Source of the DNA: an uncultured virus (IMG/VR IMGVR_UViG_2860819427_000001)
Lineage: Duplodnaviria; Heunggongvirae; Uroviricota; Caudoviricetes
Reading direction: 5' to 3' (one strand)
Virus record (IMG/VR): IMGVR_UViG_2860819427_000001
Span: 1-64,000 of that record
Length of the DNA: 64,000 nt
The notes beneath the pieces were generated by a model. The model saw only the letters and a list, made by a program, of their open reading frames with translations. It made no database searches and had not been told where the DNA came from. This document shows, one piece after another, positions 9,810 to 40,976 of the stretch. A program made the position numbers and the translations under genes. Each line of letters opens with the position of its first letter. Position 1 is the stretch's first letter.

Positions 9810-10994
9810 TTGGAGGCAATAAGACGAGAACTTTGTGACTTCATCGAGGACCATGATATAAAGTATTCTCAGATAGCAAAAGAACTACGTGTTGATAAAT
9901 CATCGATGACAAAATTTAAAAAAGATGGCACGATCGGCTTTAGGGCATTAGTAGTTATGGCGCACTTATTATTTCCAAAAGATCCAGACAGTAAGATTTC
10001 TAACTGGTGTCTCCAGTTAGACGATACCTCTAAAGAGATGGTTAAACAAGCATTTGAGTATGCTGCGATAACCAGAAATACTAAGCTACTTGAACACTTA
10101 ATTAATGAACATAAGGGGAAATCACACCTAAAATCGTATGTTTCTATGTATTGTACTATATTAAATTATATGGATATGAAAATATCCATCAAAGAGATGA
10201 TTCAAGAAATGAACGAATTCAAGGCTTCAAAAGATAAAGAGCTTCACATACTAGCTGGAATTTACAAGTGTTATGGAAATTACAGTTTGGGGGAGTACTT
10301 CCTCGTGATTTCTGACGCGATGGAAATTGGCAGAAACATAAATAAAATGAATGATAAAAGAGAGCTATTTATAAAGGAGTGTTATATTCATAGGTTTGCG
10401 GAAATGATAGCTCCCACATATCTCAAATTAAATAATCTTAAAGGTGCGGCACATTACGCGAATATCATACTACAAGCTAATATATCTCCAAAATTAAAAG
10501 CAGATGCCACGTATCTTCTAGGAATGACCAAATTGCTTCATAATCCAGACGAGTCAATTAAATATTTTGAAAAAAGTTATTCTCTAATGAGACTAACTGG
10601 TGTAGATTACCTCATAAATGACTCTTATAATAACTTAGTAATGGCAAAAGCGTATCAATATAGAAGTGATACACAAAAGTTAAGTGAATACCTTGAATCT
10701 TTAGAGGAGGTGGTTTATTTAGAAGAAGGGGACAGTTTTTATGAGTGCTTAAAGATATATGAAAAAGGGGGTGTTGATAATCTTCTTGAAGGCCATCGTA
10801 AATTCTTATATAAGTCAAACTTCTTTATTTCAGCGCTTATAGCTTCAGACCTACTCTCCACAGGCATACACCCTTATTTATTAGAAACATTGAGTAGTTA
10901 CAAACACAATAAAAAGGAGATGTTTTATTTTGAAGAAGATTTTATTGAGTGTTTTAGTGATCGCAGCGATTTTTTCAGCAGCCGGACAGCTTAA
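9810..10994 (+). CDS. aimR: Arbitrium receptor AimR (HTH plus TPR, RRNPP family)
   Basis: About 390 aa, N-terminal HTH, QAFEYA motif, helical repeats, C-terminal NFF motif; directly followed by a signal-peptide mini-gene. Confidence 0.85.
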   Translation: MEAIRRELCDFIEDHDIKYSQIAKELRVDKSSMTKFKKDGTIGFRALVVMAHLLFPKDPDSKISNWCLQLDDTSKEMVKQAFEYAAITRNTKLLEHLINEHKGKSHLKSYVSMYCTILNYMDMKISIKEMIQEMNEFKASKDKELHILAGIYKCYGNYSLGEYFLVISDAMEIGRNINKMNDKRELFIKECYIHRFAEMIAPTYLKLNNLKGAAHYANIILQANISPKLKADATYLLGMTKLLHNPDESIKYFEKSYSLMRLTGVDYLINDSYNNLVMAKAYQYRSDTQKLSEYLESLEEVVYLEEGDSFYECLKIYEKGGVDNLLEGHRKFLYKSNFFISALIASDLLSTGIHPYLLETLSSYKHNKKEMFYFEEDFIECFSDRSDFFSSRTA

Positions 10995-11058
10995 AGGGTT
11001 TGAATACGCAAGCAGCGATAAGACCTTCGGAACAGCTGAACTTCGCCCCGGAGGTTGA
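10930..11058 (+). CDS. aimP: Arbitrium pro-peptide AimP, predicted mature ELRPGG
   Basis: TTG start, SD AAGGAG; MKKILLSVLVIAAIFSAAGQLKGFEYASSDKTFGTA-ELRPGG (signal peptide, then hexapeptide after Ala). Confidence 0.88.
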   Translation: MKKILLSVLVIAAIFSAAGQLKGFEYASSDKTFGTAELRPGG

Positions 11059-33655: not shown

Positions 33656-34039
33656 ATGGGAACGGTCAAAATCGATCTACATCGCAAGGACCGCGAATTT
33701 AACGCCGCATATGCGCTCGATAACGCAGAGGGCGTTAAGTTGCTGCTCGCCGATTATCAGAAGTTCGTCAGCCGGAAGCGCTGCGGCGACTATGCGGCCG
33801 TGGAAGTACTAATCGACATCCATAAGGCGATTGAGCTCGCCGGCTTAACGGATCGGCAACGACAGGCGATCGAGCTCGTTTACTTCGGCGAACTAACGCA
33901 AGCCGAGGCGGGCGAACGGATGGGCATTGCGCAAAAGAATGTTAACGAGACCCTGGATCGATCAGCTGAAAAGATTGCGGACATTTATTACTATTGGGCC
34001 GGCCACGGCGAAGGATACACGACAGGGGGGACGTATTAA
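33656..34039 (+). CDS. Sigma-70 region-4 HTH protein (late activator-like)
   Basis: LTDRQRQAIELVYFGELTQAEAGERMGI. Confidence 0.8.
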   Translation: MGTVKIDLHRKDREFNAAYALDNAEGVKLLLADYQKFVSRKRCGDYAAVEVLIDIHKAIELAGLTDRQRQAIELVYFGELTQAEAGERMGIAQKNVNETLDRSAEKIADIYYYWAGHGEGYTTGGTY

Positions 34040-34560
34040 TGGATAAAACGATTTTGCACGAAACGATTACGGAAATGTACACACGCACTAAGGCCGGCAA
34101 GATGACGCGGCAGGAGCGAATTGAGGCAATAACGGCCTTGTCGGACGCTTACTTCGATTCTACCGGAGAGCATCCGGAGCCGTCAGCGCTTGAGCGAATG
34201 GCTAATCTCGTACTTTACGAAGACTTGTCCGATTCACATCCAGATAAAGTTGCGCGAACTGAATACCCGATAATGAGTGACGAGCAGCTGGCTAGGCGAA
34301 AGGAGGGGAAGCACCGCAAGAAAAATGATAACCCGCGTATAGAGGTTCCGCTGTCAATCGGTCAGAATTTCGGAACGGACGGGAAAAACCACTCGTACCC
34401 AGTTAGAAGGCAGAGAAGTGAGAGAGAGTCCGCTTATGTGGATAAGGCGTCTCTTTCGAAGAACAAGAGCAGGCGAAGAAAGTATCGCAAGTTCATAAGT
34501 GGAAAATCACCGGGACAATTCACCGTAAATATCGCCACTGGCGAAAAAACTTATCACTGA
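34039..34560 (+). CDS. Hypothetical protein with basic C-terminus
   Basis: TAATG coupling; SD GGGGGA. Confidence 0.7.
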   Translation: MDKTILHETITEMYTRTKAGKMTRQERIEAITALSDAYFDSTGEHPEPSALERMANLVLYEDLSDSHPDKVARTEYPIMSDEQLARRKEGKHRKKNDNPRIEVPLSIGQNFGTDGKNHSYPVRRQRSERESAYVDKASLSKNKSRRRKYRKFISGKSPGQFTVNIATGEKTYH

Positions 34561-34609
34561 TTAGGCGCTTATCTAGCGCTTTTTATTTTACCGAAAAGGA
34601 GACGATGTA

Positions 34610-35413
34610 ATGGAAAAGAAACTACGAGTTGTGAACATGGAGACTGGCGAGGATCTATCTGGAGATTATACGCTAAGGCACCGCAACCAAGACGATGCCT
34701 TTCGCCAGCAACAAGAAAAGACGGCTGATCGGCGCGATTTCTCAAACGCTAATATGTCTAATATTCACGAAGTCTATGACGCTCTTACGACGGCACAGTG
34801 CGGCTACCTGATGTTGCTTCAGTGCTACGTAGATTATAACGGTGTTCTCGTTAAATCTAGCCGCAATAAAACGCCGATGTCAACTACCAACATGATGGAC
34901 GTATTACAGCTTAGCAGAAAGCGAATGACCTTCTACGATTTCCTAGCCGCGTGCACAAAACACGATATTATACGCGAAAATGACGGCGTCTACAGCGTAA
35001 ATGAGCGTTATCACTTTAAAGGTAACTTCGGCAGCCAGTACGTTGTTAAGTTATATACAGCGAAAATAAAACGTGTATATAGCGAGGTGAAGGCGACGGA
35101 CATCGGCCTGATCTATCGGATGCTGCCGTTCATCCATTTCGAGACGAACGCTCTATGCGAAAATCCTTTCGAAAAGAATCCGAAGCGTATCCGCTGGTTC
35201 AATAAGAAGGAGCTTGCGGCGGCGATCGGAGTTACTTCGGACACGCTTGGCCGGCGCCTGAAACAGATGAAATTCGACGGCGAATACGTTGTTGCGCGCA
35301 TTAAAGTCGGCAGCGAGCCGGAGCGCTATACGTTTAATCCTAACGTATTCTATCGACAGTCTAAGACGCCGGACAAAACGCTGATTGCGCTGTTCAACGT
35401 TAAGAAGGTATAA
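34610..35413 (+). CDS. Tandem winged-helix protein, replication-initiator-like
   Basis: Two HTH-like halves ending YSVN / YTFNPNVFY; starts VNMETGE. Confidence 0.55.
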   Translation: MEKKLRVVNMETGEDLSGDYTLRHRNQDDAFRQQQEKTADRRDFSNANMSNIHEVYDALTTAQCGYLMLLQCYVDYNGVLVKSSRNKTPMSTTNMMDVLQLSRKRMTFYDFLAACTKHDIIRENDGVYSVNERYHFKGNFGSQYVVKLYTAKIKRVYSEVKATDIGLIYRMLPFIHFETNALCENPFEKNPKRIRWFNKKELAAAIGVTSDTLGRRLKQMKFDGEYVVARIKVGSEPERYTFNPNVFYRQSKTPDKTLIALFNVKKV

Positions 35414-35414
35414 T
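35385..35414 (+). promoter_or_regulatory. Sigma-A-like promoter for the mini-gene
   Basis: TTGCGC-N18-TATAAT. Confidence 0.55.
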
Positions 35415-35438
35415 TTTACTATATCGGAGGTGAGACGA

Positions 35439-35501
35439 ATGGGAGAGATCAAACCGGGAGCTAATCCGTTGGAAAGCGCGAGCCCGTCACGCGGAGCATA
35501 A
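35439..35501 (+). CDS. 20-aa peptide MGEIKPGANPLESASPSRGA (arbitrium-signal-like)
   Basis: SD GGAGGTGA, ATG, own promoter and terminator. Confidence 0.65.
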   Translation: MGEIKPGANPLESASPSRGA

Positions 35502-35506
35502 AACGA

Positions 35507-35534
35507 AAAAGGACGCCTTATACGGGCGTCTTTT
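35507..35534. terminator. Bidirectional terminator
   Basis: A run, GACGCC...GGCGTC stem, T run, between convergent genes. Confidence 0.8.
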
Positions 35535-38415: not shown

Positions 38416-40179
38416 TTAAATTGATATATTATTCGTTTCTATATCGGTTTCGTTGAGTGATAGGGTGCCGGATACCTTATTCCCGATGACCCGCGAATTA
38501 ATAGACTCGGAAGTCTTTATCGGATTGTACAGCCTGAAAGAACTGACGGAGTGCACAACGTTTTCTTTTACTAATGCACCGTCGGTGTTTTTCGTTTGAA
38601 TTCCGTAACCGCCGGAAGCCTTACGATTAAACGTTATGTCATTTCCGGATATTTCGGGGTTTTTGCCGCCGACAACGTAAATCGGTATCAGACATTTCGC
38701 GTCAGTGATGTCGTTGTTCTTAATGCGGACGGTTCGACCTTCGGTGCTTTCTCCGTAAATAGCCATGTTTGCCGGTTTTGGTATACGGGTGTATTTAATA
38801 TCCACGTCGCTTCCCCTATCGAAAGATATAGCGTATCCTACTGCGCCAGAGTAGTCGGTAAGATCAATGTCGTTATCTATCAATTTCGCCGAAGACCGCG
38901 TAACTACGACGCCTTGCTTACTGCGTTTAATAACGTTCGCTCTCGCTGTAACATCAGTTGAATCGACGATTTCTATCGCTGTAATATCTGAGTCGTTGAG
39001 AGCGTTACCTTCAAACGTTATATCTTTTGAGTTACGGGCACTACATAATTTACCCGGACAATGGTTTACGATGTTATCCGAAAACTTAACGTTCTTGGCT
39101 TCGAAGGTAGCCAATGCGGTGCCGTCAGCACTAAGCTCCGAAATTGTATTGCCGGATGCTGAAACGTCTGCTCCGCGAACGTCAATACCACTGCTGAAGC
39201 CTTTTATCGTATTTCCGGTAATTGATATATTATTTCCACTAAAGCCAGCCGACACGCCAAGGCTCGTAATCGCGGTATATTTCTTGTCCGTACGTACTAA
39301 CGTATTATTCGAGATAGTGGTGTCGGTTCCGAATCCGTAAGAGATGGAGTTATCAGAATAGTTTCCGGAAATAACGACCTCGTATCCGCTGAAATTACAA
39401 ACGGACTGCAATATATTTCCTTTGAACGTATTATTCGTTATCCTCACATTGCGAGGCTCTTCGTAATCGATATTGCCTTCTCCGTAACCTTCGATATCAA
39501 TGCCGAACATAGGCTTGCAGCCATCGTTTATGCCAGCGTTGGTTATTACGTTTTTATCGATCTTTACATCTTCTCCGCCAGTGACCGATATATTGTTTCG
39601 CCGAGCACCGTCTAATTTACAACGCTCAATTGTAACGTTGCGGGCAGGTCGGTAAGACGTCCAAGGAACGTTTAACATACCTTGCGCGTTCACCATAATA
39701 CAATCGCCCGTACATTCCGAAATATCCACGCCTTCAATCACGACATCCTTGGCGCCATGTACGTTTATACCGTAACCCCATTCGTGAGTTTCCTTCTTTT
39801 TTAGATTGCCGTGCCCGGTAAAGTCGTGCTGATAACGTTCGCCGCGTATCTTTCCGCCTTTTATTGTCACGTCTTCGACCTCACCAAGGTAGATGCAGGA
39901 ATATCCGTAAGAACTGTTTGGCTCTACAATAAATTCTGCTTTCGGATGTAATATTAAGGTCATGTACGATGGTACACGTATCCCTGCGCCTTCTTCCGGT
40001 TTAACTGCAATACGGTTTACTGCGTCGATAAGGTATTTTCCCTTAGGGATTTCCACTTCAGAATAACCGGCCTCAGCCGCCTCGTGTATTGCGCGATTAA
40101 TTCCTTGCGTAGTCATAGCCGCCTCAGTCCCGTCCCAACGTACATCGTATTTTTCAGCTTCCAACGTATACCGCATCAT
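38416..40179 (-). CDS. Right-handed beta-helix (pectin-lyase-like) protein
   Basis: Many Asn/Ile-rich beta-helix repeats; VEIPKGKY; GIDIEG. Confidence 0.82.
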   Translation of the reverse strand: MMRYTLEAEKYDVRWDGTEAAMTTQGINRAIHEAAEAGYSEVEIPKGKYLIDAVNRIAVKPEEGAGIRVPSYMTLILHPKAEFIVEPNSSYGYSCIYLGEVEDVTIKGGKIRGERYQHDFTGHGNLKKKETHEWGYGINVHGAKDVVIEGVDISECTGDCIMVNAQGMLNVPWTSYRPARNVTIERCKLDGARRNNISVTGGEDVKIDKNVITNAGINDGCKPMFGIDIEGYGEGNIDYEEPRNVRITNNTFKGNILQSVCNFSGYEVVISGNYSDNSISYGFGTDTTISNNTLVRTDKKYTAITSLGVSAGFSGNNISITGNTIKGFSSGIDVRGADVSASGNTISELSADGTALATFEAKNVKFSDNIVNHCPGKLCSARNSKDITFEGNALNDSDITAIEIVDSTDVTARANVIKRSKQGVVVTRSSAKLIDNDIDLTDYSGAVGYAISFDRGSDVDIKYTRIPKPANMAIYGESTEGRTVRIKNNDITDAKCLIPIYVVGGKNPEISGNDITFNRKASGGYGIQTKNTDGALVKENVVHSVSSFRLYNPIKTSESINSRVIGNKVSGTLSLNETDIETNNISI

Positions 40180-40976
40180 TATTCGTTACCTCCAACGTTA
40201 TAGTTTTCGTTAATGAACTCCGACAGTAGACCGGTAAACTTGTAGAACGTCGCGGTTTCGGTTCCGGCGCGTCCGTTAAGCGAGAACTTACCGAACATGC
40301 TTTTACGCAAACCGGTACTGAGCTCGATCTGTAAGCTTTCGCCAGTTATGCACTTATTCGCTATGTTCGCGCTACTTGCGCCTGCGAATCGATGTCCAGC
40401 GCCTACGAGTTCGGCACTAAAGCCAGCAGCGTTCAAGCGATCTACTAACGTCTGGCCGCGGACCGGATCGGTACCGCCTACGATAATGTGCTCGGTGCTG
40501 TCGCTGTATCCGTGAAGCGATATAACGCGTTGGTGTCGGGCGGTCATATCTAGCGCGGTTGGCTCGTCGAAATGGGTACTCGTGATGTGAAGGTCGAATC
40601 CGTTGGAGGTCTTGAGTGATTCGAATAGATAAGTAGAATAGTCGTTACTGAGTTCGCGGGATAATTCGCTAGTTCCGCCCTCAATACTGCCGCCGTGCGG
40701 CGCGAGTATCAAAACGGGCGTGGCGTGGTCGATTGCGAAAATGTTGTAGTTCGTCTCGGGTTCGGTGGCTTGGAGTTCGGCAAAGTTGCGGTAAACATCG
40801 GTGGCTTGTGCGGTGACTGAAGTGAATGCGGATAACATTGCGCATAGAATAAACGCTGTGATATACTGGAAGTGCTTCGTTCGATTCGGACGGTGCAGCT
40901 TTGCTTTGGTCGGTGGGGCTGCGCCTCCGTTTCGTTCTTTAATCGCCTTATTCAGTTTTCGAGGATCATTAATCAT
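40179..40976 (-). CDS. Poly-gamma-glutamate hydrolase (PghP/DUF867 family), secreted
   Basis: APHGGSIEGGTSEL, HITSTHFDEP, SLHG, QIELS; signal peptide ending AQA. Confidence 0.9.
   Translation of the reverse strand: MINDPRKLNKAIKERNGGAAPPTKAKLHRPNRTKHFQYITAFILCAMLSAFTSVTAQATDVYRNFAELQATEPETNYNIFAIDHATPVLILAPHGGSIEGGTSELSRELSNDYSTYLFESLKTSNGFDLHITSTHFDEPTALDMTARHQRVISLHGYSDSTEHIIVGGTDPVRGQTLVDRLNAAGFSAELVGAGHRFAGASSANIANKCITGESLQIELSTGLRKSMFGKFSLNGRAGTETATFYKFTGLLSEFINENYNVGGNE

Follow-up and report, generated by a model that had tools for sequence, protein, structure and literature searches.

The 64,000-nucleotide stretch analysed here (positions 1 to 64,000 of the uncultured virus record IMGVR_UViG_2860819427_000001 in IMG/VR; hereafter the window) contains a mini-gene of 20 codons, at 35439 to 35501, which reads as one allele of a polymorphic family of leaderless, receptor-less arrays of foreign arbitrium signals, most of them signals of the SPbeta family. 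Of the communication systems between viruses, arbitrium was discovered first, and the mini-gene probably serves signal forgery, driving competing arbitrium phages dormant. The core of the first-pass annotation of this DNA, which had proposed a mimic with neither signal peptide nor receptor that serves interference between phages, is strongly supported by comparison with relatives, because the arrays contain exact signals of other phages, appear to be selected at the peptide level, never include the carrier's own signal, occur in carriers with no AimR, and in three cases match the signal of a co-resident prophage.

The mini-gene and its product

The elements of the mini-gene are as follows.

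35427..35434, plus strand: Shine-Dalgarno (SD) sequence GGAGGTGA, 4 nucleotides (nt) 5' of the ATG, kept in all carriers
35439..35501, plus strand: mini-ORF (open reading frame), ATG at 35439, 20 codons, TAA at 35499-35501; product MGEIKPGANPLESASPSRGA
35442..35462, plus strand: N-terminal unit GEIKPGA, immediately 3' of the initiator Met, like non-clade-2 signals
35463..35480, plus strand: spacer NPLE plus 'SA', the latter a remnant of a middle SAxRGA unit
35481..35498, plus strand: C-terminal unit SPSRGA, an exact clade-2 (SPbeta family) arbitrium signal, abutting the stop codon and preceded by Ala

The SD sequence, the ORF and a hairpin terminator were all found where the first-pass annotation had put them. 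In the list of reading frames the mini-ORF is the 3' part of a frame of 38 amino acids (aa) that opens with TTG at 35385, and an SD sequence stands before the ATG only. The 20-aa product is hydrophilic throughout, with no hydrophobic stretch, and therefore has no Sec signal. The Ala in front of SPSRGA is the residue found at the same place in natural precursors (..KVASPSRGA), one natural aimP with this ending being present in locus L373, and SPSRGA would need a single cut, after that Ala, to be released from the window's product. That SPSRGA is a signal of this clade had been suggested in the first-pass annotation, and it is indeed assigned to 8 of the 281 AimR in Table S2 of PMC13220667 and used in 10.1101/2025.10.13.681967. 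The EIKPGG named there likewise proved to be the pheromone of Wbeta (PMC8878798). The resemblance claimed for EIKPGA stands insofar as it is one residue off natural EISPGA, EIKVGA and EIKPGG; an exact natural match was not present in the samples.

By alignment, the window allele is the type seen in L014 and L004 minus 12 nt of the middle unit, in frame, leaving ..NPLESA and then SPSRGA; the undeleted form, with 12 extra bases behind 35475, is present in a contig from a public sequencing run. The window allele is thus a reduced one, consisting of one exact signal (SPSRGA), a near-natural EIKPGA and the stump of a third unit.

Alleles and signal content

Sixteen DNA alleles are known, each giving one peptide of 17-39 aa and all in frame, and a protein collection adds four, bringing the alleles to 20. 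Besides the window 20-mer, the peptides of the DNA alleles are MGMPRGASPLEGIVRGA, MGMPRGASPLESIVRGA, MGFTVGAKELPKPKYGFPRGA, MGMPRGANPLESAIRGASPSRGA, MGMPRGASSLESASRGASPSRGA, MGMPRGASPLESIIRGAGPVRGA, MGEIKPGANPLESAIRGASPSRGA, MGEIRPGASPLESASRGASPSRGA, MGMPRGANPLESAIRGAGPAESASRGA, MGMPRGASPLESIIRGAGPAESASRGA, MGEIKPGANPLESIIRGAGPAESASRGA, MGEIKLGANPLESAIRGAGPAESASRGA, MGELNPGAGPQLYGMPRGASPLEGIVRGA, MGELKPGGFPQRYGMPRGASPLESASRGAGPVRGV and MGELNPGAGPQLYGMPRGASPLESIIRGAGPAESASRGA. The relatives hold two to four signal units per ORF, and the set of units is reshuffled between phages. Table S2 of PMC13220667, with 26 mature clade-2 peptides among 281 AimR, served as the reference for natural signals; on its list are 8 of the 11 distinct RGA-type units of the arrays and 35 of the 38 instances, with the following numbers of AimR.

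SASRGA: 42
GMPRGA: 32
GFTVGA: 23
SAIRGA: 19
SIIRGA: 17
SPSRGA: 8
GFPRGA: 5
GIVRGA: 5

SPbeta itself signals with GMPRGA, phi3T with SAIRGA and Goe11 with GIVRGA (PMC13220667, section 8, and our own aimP translations). The prior chance that a hexapeptide exactly matches one of the 26 known signals is about 4e-7, and with the pattern repeated 35 times in relatives the matches lie far beyond coincidence.

The N-terminal unit of the arrays often resembles the signals of other clades. The E-type units at this position (GEIKPGA, GEIRPGA, GEIKLGA, GELNPGA and GELKPGG) lie within the non-clade-2 signal space, the natural Bacillus AimP ends that we collected being EISPGA, EIKVGA, EIKVGG, ELRPGG, ETRPGG and DIRVGA.

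Such short products are nearly invisible in protein databases. Exact look-up of 10 alleles in a collection of 15 billion proteins returned only the 39-aa allele and the 29-aa allele beginning MGELNPGA, the alleles of less than 29 aa that were looked up being absent from it, and a word-based protein search gave six relatives, all unnamed and with no Pfam match, which were the source of the four extra alleles. The public gene calls P0004, P0006, P0007, P0009 and P0010, also unnamed, run the arrays upstream to 41-53 aa (MVEYRCEKES..), reading in frame through the end region of the neighbouring gene and masking the SD-led short ORF.

Selection on the peptide

The alleles fall into ten length classes that differ by whole codons throughout, and all of them keep the SD sequence, an ATGGG start and a stop codon right before the terminator. 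Among the 16 DNA alleles GMPRGA is encoded in six synonymous ways, SASRGA in five, SAIRGA in four and SPSRGA in three; in SASRGA, Ser switches among AGT, TCA and TCT, and Arg among AGA, AGG and CGC. It is evidently the peptide, and not the DNA or the RNA, that selection keeps, and the arrays form a real, selected and polymorphic family built of foreign signals. The first-pass annotation had suggested a search of related prophages for a hexapeptide that is conserved or switches among known signals, and this is what the relatives gave, with the frame kept in all 16 DNA alleles and the units switching among known AimP signals.

The array codons are unlike those of the natural aimP genes of SPbeta, phi3T and Goe11, the residue before an array unit is Glu, Tyr, Ala or the initiator Met where natural aimP has Val/Ile-Ala, and no trace of signal-peptide coding is left in the arrays. 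The idea that the units are copies of captured aimP 3' ends was rejected, the codons and the preceding residues both being different. A structured RNA, leader or attenuator was also ruled out: Rfam has 0 matches in the window, the fold z-score is -0.51 with the terminator hairpin as the sole stable structure, and the variation tracks codons and not base pairs.

The carriers' own arbitrium systems

The window has a regular arbitrium pair of its own.

9810-10994, plus strand: the window's own aimR (394 aa, PF22871)
10930-11058, plus strand: the window's own aimP (42 aa, with a signal peptide, ending TAELRPGG)

This pair lies 24.4 kb from the mini-gene, in keeping with the 24 kb of the first-pass annotation, and its AimR is the only one in the 71-kb provirus. 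The own AimPs of the array phages begin with MKKILL.. and a hydrophobic core, unlike the product of the mini-gene. In all 13 carriers with a readable aimP the phage's own signal (ELRPGG, EIKVGG, INAIGG, DIRVGA or ANQLGG) is absent from its array. One of the carriers, G003, has an AimR 98% identical to that of the window and the same AimP, and its array holds only clade-2 units. Two others rated 100% complete, G008 and G013, gave no AimR either by protein search or with the Pfam model.

The start of the window's aimP overlaps the last 65 bases of aimR (10930-10994) in another frame, an arrangement also seen in L077 and L213-L215. A further natural AimP, secreted and encoded 3' of aimR in L229 (IMGVR_UViG_2919414237_000001), ends ..ASDKVGGFILFSDKVGG; its presumed mature unit, SDKVGG, occurs twice in the one precursor, a tandem self-signal in an ordinary arbitrium gene.

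Host groups and co-resident prophages

The allele with GFTVGA and GFPRGA is that of Bacillus glycinifermentans, and both signals are natural in prophages of B. sonorensis (Table S1, PMC13220667). Three genomes, two of them recognised by a shared record-name prefix, combine an array with a co-resident SPbeta-like prophage whose signal is spelled out exactly in the array. The genome of G022 has, on another contig, a clade-2 aimR-aimP pair ending GFPRGA, which is in its array; record prefix 2811995017 combines the AimR-less array phage G013 with a 129-kb SPbeta-like provirus whose aimP ends GFTVGA; and prefix 2811995041 combines two array phages with a 173-kb SPbeta-like provirus whose aimP also ends GFTVGA. 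The two array phages of the last genome, 2811995041_000003 and 2811995041_000006 (L026 and L015), are different proviruses, both with the GFTVGA/GFPRGA allele, one having an AimR (signal ANQLGG) and the other none.

As a matter of gene structure, the contig of carrier G017 (L378, 6365-8925) has a clade-2 aimR into which a 372-aa gene (phrog_4555) has been inserted, leaving pieces of 112 and 236 aa. The aimP that follows the split aimR, ending SAIRGA, is intact; the record is 65% complete and looks mosaic.

A discrete and patchily distributed insertion

Comparison with phages that lack the mini-gene delimits a small block.

35414..35501, plus strand: 88-bp block (SD sequence and ORF), present in the window, absent from phi18-2, 268TH007 and L037

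In the block-less phi18-2 and 268TH007 the homologous upstream gene ends in ..GGTATAA or ..GGCATAA and is followed directly by AACGAAAAAGGACGCC, the terminator; the edge of the block cannot be placed more finely, since ATAA closes both the upstream gene and the block. When GenBank phages were searched by blastn with the region, phi18-2, 268TH002 and 268TH007 gave matches to the flanking gene that break off at its stop codon, and tblastn with the 39-aa array gave no match there, a weak test with so short and low-complexity a query.

The flanking 267-aa protein led to 46 IMG/VR loci, with the block in 17, absent from 25 and undecidable in 4, where the contig or the match ends; one of the 25 non-carriers shows just 11 bases past the stop codon. 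Scanning IMG/VR with the motif running from the SD sequence to the start codon gave 27 loci, 21 with arrays and 6 chance matches, and a motif for the end of the ORF gave one further contig, so that the pattern scans together add 5 and bring the total to 22 IMG/VR contigs besides the window. Of 49 genomes of Bacillus species, 3 carry the block, one being B. glycinifermentans GO-13. A 19-nt SD pattern run against genome contigs yielded, among the matches listed, mostly chance hits in Streptomyces, only B. glycinifermentans being genuine. The scan for a leaderless M-GMPRGA returned 81 loci, of which 9 are known array contigs, 56 have the motif within a long ORF of metagenomic phages that are unrelated, and 15 are array-free; no second type of locus for arrays was found among these 81.

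A tree of the flanking gene mixes carriers with non-carriers; phi18-2, 268TH007 and L037, which lack the block, group with the carrier L012. Of the 16 rows in one clade, of B. subtilis type, 13 are carriers, which between them show 12 different alleles; the second clade has 5 carriers, all with one allele, dispersed among 21 non-carriers. The rate of allele turnover thus seems to differ sharply between the two host groups. The allele MGFTVGAKELPKPKYGFPRGA recurs without change in 9 IMG/VR records and in 2 genomes of Bacillus species.

An unrelated 146-aa DnaD-like gene takes the place of the upstream gene in G015, and the mini-gene is retained there; the succession of sigma factor, phrog_13088, gene X, mini-gene and terminator is intact, with conservation of the DNA beginning at GGTATAAT. 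The mini-gene is a discrete accessory insertion, with a strong SD sequence, at the end of an operon.

Proposed function and alternatives

We propose that transcription would reach the mini-gene as read-through from the rightward early/middle operon, perhaps joined by transcripts from the weak TATAAT in front of it, and that it would be translated from its own SD sequence, with Met removed ahead of Gly. The string would then be cleaved into hexapeptides, which would bind the AimR of rival phages and silence aimX, so that a co-resident SPbeta-like prophage would be restrained from induction and co-infecting or neighbouring rivals would be driven to lysogeny, to the benefit of the emitter. Methionine aminopeptidase takes off Met before Gly.

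That the string must be cut follows from the way AimR grips both free ends of the hexapeptide: in the structure of SPbeta AimR with GMPRGA the free amine is held by Q299 and E300 and the free carboxylate by R228 (PMC6458997). The uncut 20-mer that the first-pass annotation had envisaged as the decoy therefore does not fit the solved complex, and proteolytic trimming would be required. The layout of the arrays agrees with cutting: Met-Gly directly precedes the first unit, and the last one runs up to the stop codon. As to where this would happen, maturation in the cytoplasm of the producer, with action on co-resident or co-infecting rivals, is a serious possibility that we put forward tentatively; the effect would then be private and immediate. 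A Phr pentapeptide made inside B. subtilis is reportedly active, as Lazazzera et al. are said to have found in 1997, which would lend the intracellular route plausibility. More doubtful is a route in which lysis by the phage itself would free the peptide, extracellular host proteases would trim it and Opp would take it up; the extracellular proteases of B. subtilis are described as excising the internal pheromones of tandem Phr propeptides (PMC11343458).

The effect itself has close precedents. Non-cognate signals, SPSRGA among them, are reported to send phi3T into early lysogeny, to lessen its excision and to raise the fitness of the emitter, which gains also where a resident prophage faces a superinfecting phage; SPSRGA is active on the phi3T AimR, and systems of clades 1, 2 and 3 are commonly combined in B. 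subtilis polylysogens (10.1101/2025.10.13.681967). Cognate peptide lowers prophage induction at least tenfold (PMC13220667, section 8).

Several observations weigh against signal forgery as the function. A route to mature hexapeptides has to be supposed with no signal peptide, for an AimR pocket that would need free termini, and the residue that the spacers (NPLE, SPLE, GPAE, GPQLY and KELPKPKY) put in front of a unit is Glu or Tyr, unlike the Val/Ile-Ala of natural precursors. The public-run matches are to assembled contigs, in small shares, which give a related allele as DNA only and carry no information on transcription. The gene is dispensable, as phi18-2, 268TH007 and 25 proviruses do without it, and the window copy, with one unit lost, could be decaying. 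The signal content is imperfect too: SIVRGA, GPVRGA and GPVRGV are not among the signals of Table S2 in PMC13220667, the commonest clade-2 signal of that table, GFGRGA (56 of 281 AimR), is in 0 of the 20 alleles, and none of the five E-type units has an exact natural match among the collected AimPs, a sample that does not include the signal tables of Stokar-Avihail 2019 and Erez 2017. Nor do co-residents always match. G024, with an array of GEIKPGA, SIIRGA and SASRGA, is accompanied by a clade-2 aimP ending GFGRGA, and G017, with GELNPGA, GMPRGA and GIVRGA, has an aimP ending SAIRGA 4 kb away, neither signal being in the respective array; the matching co-residents are few, all have one allele and may be related strains.

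Four other explanations have to be set beside signal forgery. The peptide, uncut or partly cut, might blind rivals, competing for Opp or sitting in their AimR without switching it, so that they miss their own signal and go to lysis. The absence of an export signal and the spacers unlike natural pro-regions would suit this, since a full-length form might be active, and extended forms can act differently, immature Phr peptides binding Rap poorly (PMC11343458); the units are nevertheless exact agonists, bounded by Met-Gly at one end of the string and by the stop codon at the other as expected if free ends matter, and inducing a co-resident rival would harm the emitter, which makes blinding improbable. 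An action on Bacillus physiology, such as colony development or sporulation, and not on rival phages is suggested by the report that SAIRGA changes colony development of B. subtilis and promotes sporulation (bioRxiv 10.64898/2026.08.23.746533). It would leave unexplained why an array holds several phage signals, why these track the signals of the host group and of co-residents and why alleles turn over so fast, and we consider it very unlikely.

A lack of any function, the arrays being a recombination scar or decaying captured aimP 3' ends that are untranslated or neutral, would accord with the patchy presence and repeated loss, with the internal deletion in the window allele, with public-run matches to contigs and not transcripts, and with a gene too short to have a name in any source. 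It is hard to reconcile with 20 of 20 alleles being intact, with the strong SD sequence kept, the stop at the same place and ten in-frame length classes, or with five- and six-fold synonymous encodings, codons unlike those of natural aimP and the lack of any trace of signal-peptide coding; RNA structure is unremarkable beyond the terminator (z = -0.51, no Rfam match). Absence of function, too, we judge very unlikely. Least probable of all is self-regulation, with the peptides as an internal, secretion-independent input to the carrier's own AimR switch. The window's EIKPGA does resemble its own ELRPGG, and E-type units fall within the family's own signal space, but the carrier's own signal is found in 0 of 13 arrays, 8 of 16 alleles have no E-type unit, G003 combines the AimR and AimP of the window with clade-2 units only, and in two complete carriers there is no AimR to regulate.

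Comparison with known systems

The mini-gene shares with the AimP genes of the SPbeta family (SPbeta yopL, phi3T_90 and Goe11 aimP) the same mature hexapeptides, a last unit at the stop codon and the presumed target, AimR with its repression of aimX. It differs in having no signal peptide, pro-region or adjacent aimR, in codon usage, and in that its family holds the signals of other phages, two to four different ones per ORF in the relatives. By position, by the lack of a signal peptide and by the lack of the cognate signal it does not count as an AimP gene, though its C-terminal end is a known ligand. Crosstalk through ordinary AimP (PMC13220667; 10.1101/2025.10.13.681967) has the outcome proposed here, rival lysogeny or blocked induction with a benefit to the emitter; as described there it is a by-product of similar cognate signals, whereas here a dedicated gene, separate from the phage's own system, would hold the exact signals of rivals.

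Tandem Phr propeptides, for which WprA and Bpr are B. subtilis extracellular proteases able to do the cutting, likewise have several units in one short precursor, the internal ones cut on both sides (PMC11343458). They are secreted, lie beside their cognate Rap and repeat their own pheromone, while the arrays have neither leader nor receptor and hold foreign signals. Phage morons resemble the mini-gene as discrete insertions with their own SD sequence, placed before an existing terminator, patchy in distribution and kept when a neighbour is swapped; unlike them, the mini-gene block is just 88 bp and encodes signalling peptides instead of a folded protein.

No description of such a gene was found in the titles and abstract openings of the arbitrium and AimP literature since 2022 (subscription journals, bioRxiv supplements and the founding arbitrium papers lying outside this search), and look-ups of terms in PMC13220667 and 10.1101/2025.10.13.681967 gave no mention of one. 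It is quite possible, if short of probable, that this is the first dedicated viral weapon of signal forgery, a fast-shuffling cassette that locks rivals dormant from inside a shared cell and does so without secretion. Work of 2025-26 has shown that phages overhear and are misled by each other's similar signals (PMC13220667; 10.1101/2025.10.13.681967). If signal forgery is true, deception among phages would be more than a side effect, having evolved as a strategy for which a dedicated genetic module exists, and even a phage with no communication system of its own could address its competitors in their private languages. From its arrays one could in that case read which rivals a phage lineage has met, and pressure from forgers could be one of the forces by which arbitrium signal-receptor pairs diversify and are exchanged horizontally. 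The family also offers a directly testable system, in laboratory strains of B. subtilis, for viral competition within polylysogens, a natural case of multi-signal 'polypeptide' design and a new search target, very short ORFs at operon ends that gene callers pass over.

Operon setting

The window covers most of the 71-kb source provirus, which is of the 64-68-kb Bacillus subtilis phage type of phi18-2, 268TH002 and 268TH007. Its left part holds, in order, the integrase, replication genes, aimR and aimP, DNA polymerase, ribonucleotide reductase, ThyX and methyltransferases; to the right of the terminator follow a leftward ligase, a poly-gamma-glutamate hydrolase and a beta-helix tail spike, and then rightward structural genes from about 44.5 kb. 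The immediate neighbours of the mini-ORF are the phrog_9501 gene and the DNA ligase.

33656..34560, plus strand: sigma-factor-like gene (33656-34039; phrog_3512, Sigma70_r4) and phrog_13088 gene, in the operon that ends in the mini-gene
34610..35413, plus strand: 267-aa gene, phrog_9501, of unknown function, 'AsnC family' or 'DNA binding' in the annotation of relatives
35385-35390 and 35409-35414, plus strand: promoter-like TTGCGC-N18-TATAAT (18-nt spacer), the -35 hexamer with 3 of 6 matches
35512-35530 (element to 35539), both strands: terminator hairpin GACGCC-TTATACG-GGCGTC, 6-bp G+C stem with T runs on either side

The first-pass annotation had taken the mini-gene for a stand-alone unit with its own promoter. 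The promoter-like TTGCGC-N18-TATAAT is missing from a consensus promoter scan of the window, and it is in fact the coding 3' end of the 267-aa gene, whose stop codon falls within the TATAAT; in the context of the window the inserted block includes just the last T of that hexamer, and in another context TGGTATAAT, an extended -10, stands 5' of the block. There is no terminator between the 267-aa gene and the mini-ORF, which is better seen as the last cistron of a long rightward operon for replication, nucleotide metabolism and a sigma factor, and not clearly as a stand-alone gene. The weak -35 and the position as last cistron suggest expression in the lytic programme rather than, as had been supposed, by the lysogen.

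A terminator-like hairpin at 34563-34581 lies between the phrog_13088 gene and the 267-aa gene, and given this hairpin the 267-aa gene and the mini-ORF may form a separate short transcript. The terminator behind the mini-gene is common to the rightward operon and the convergent minus-strand genes; the scan assigns it to the minus strand, and it appears to be a bidirectional intrinsic terminator. On the minus strand beyond it, at 38416-40976, the poly-gamma-glutamate hydrolase (PF05908) adjoins the beta-helix tail-spike-like protein, a pairing that is the usual kit of phages on capsule-forming hosts of the B. subtilis group.

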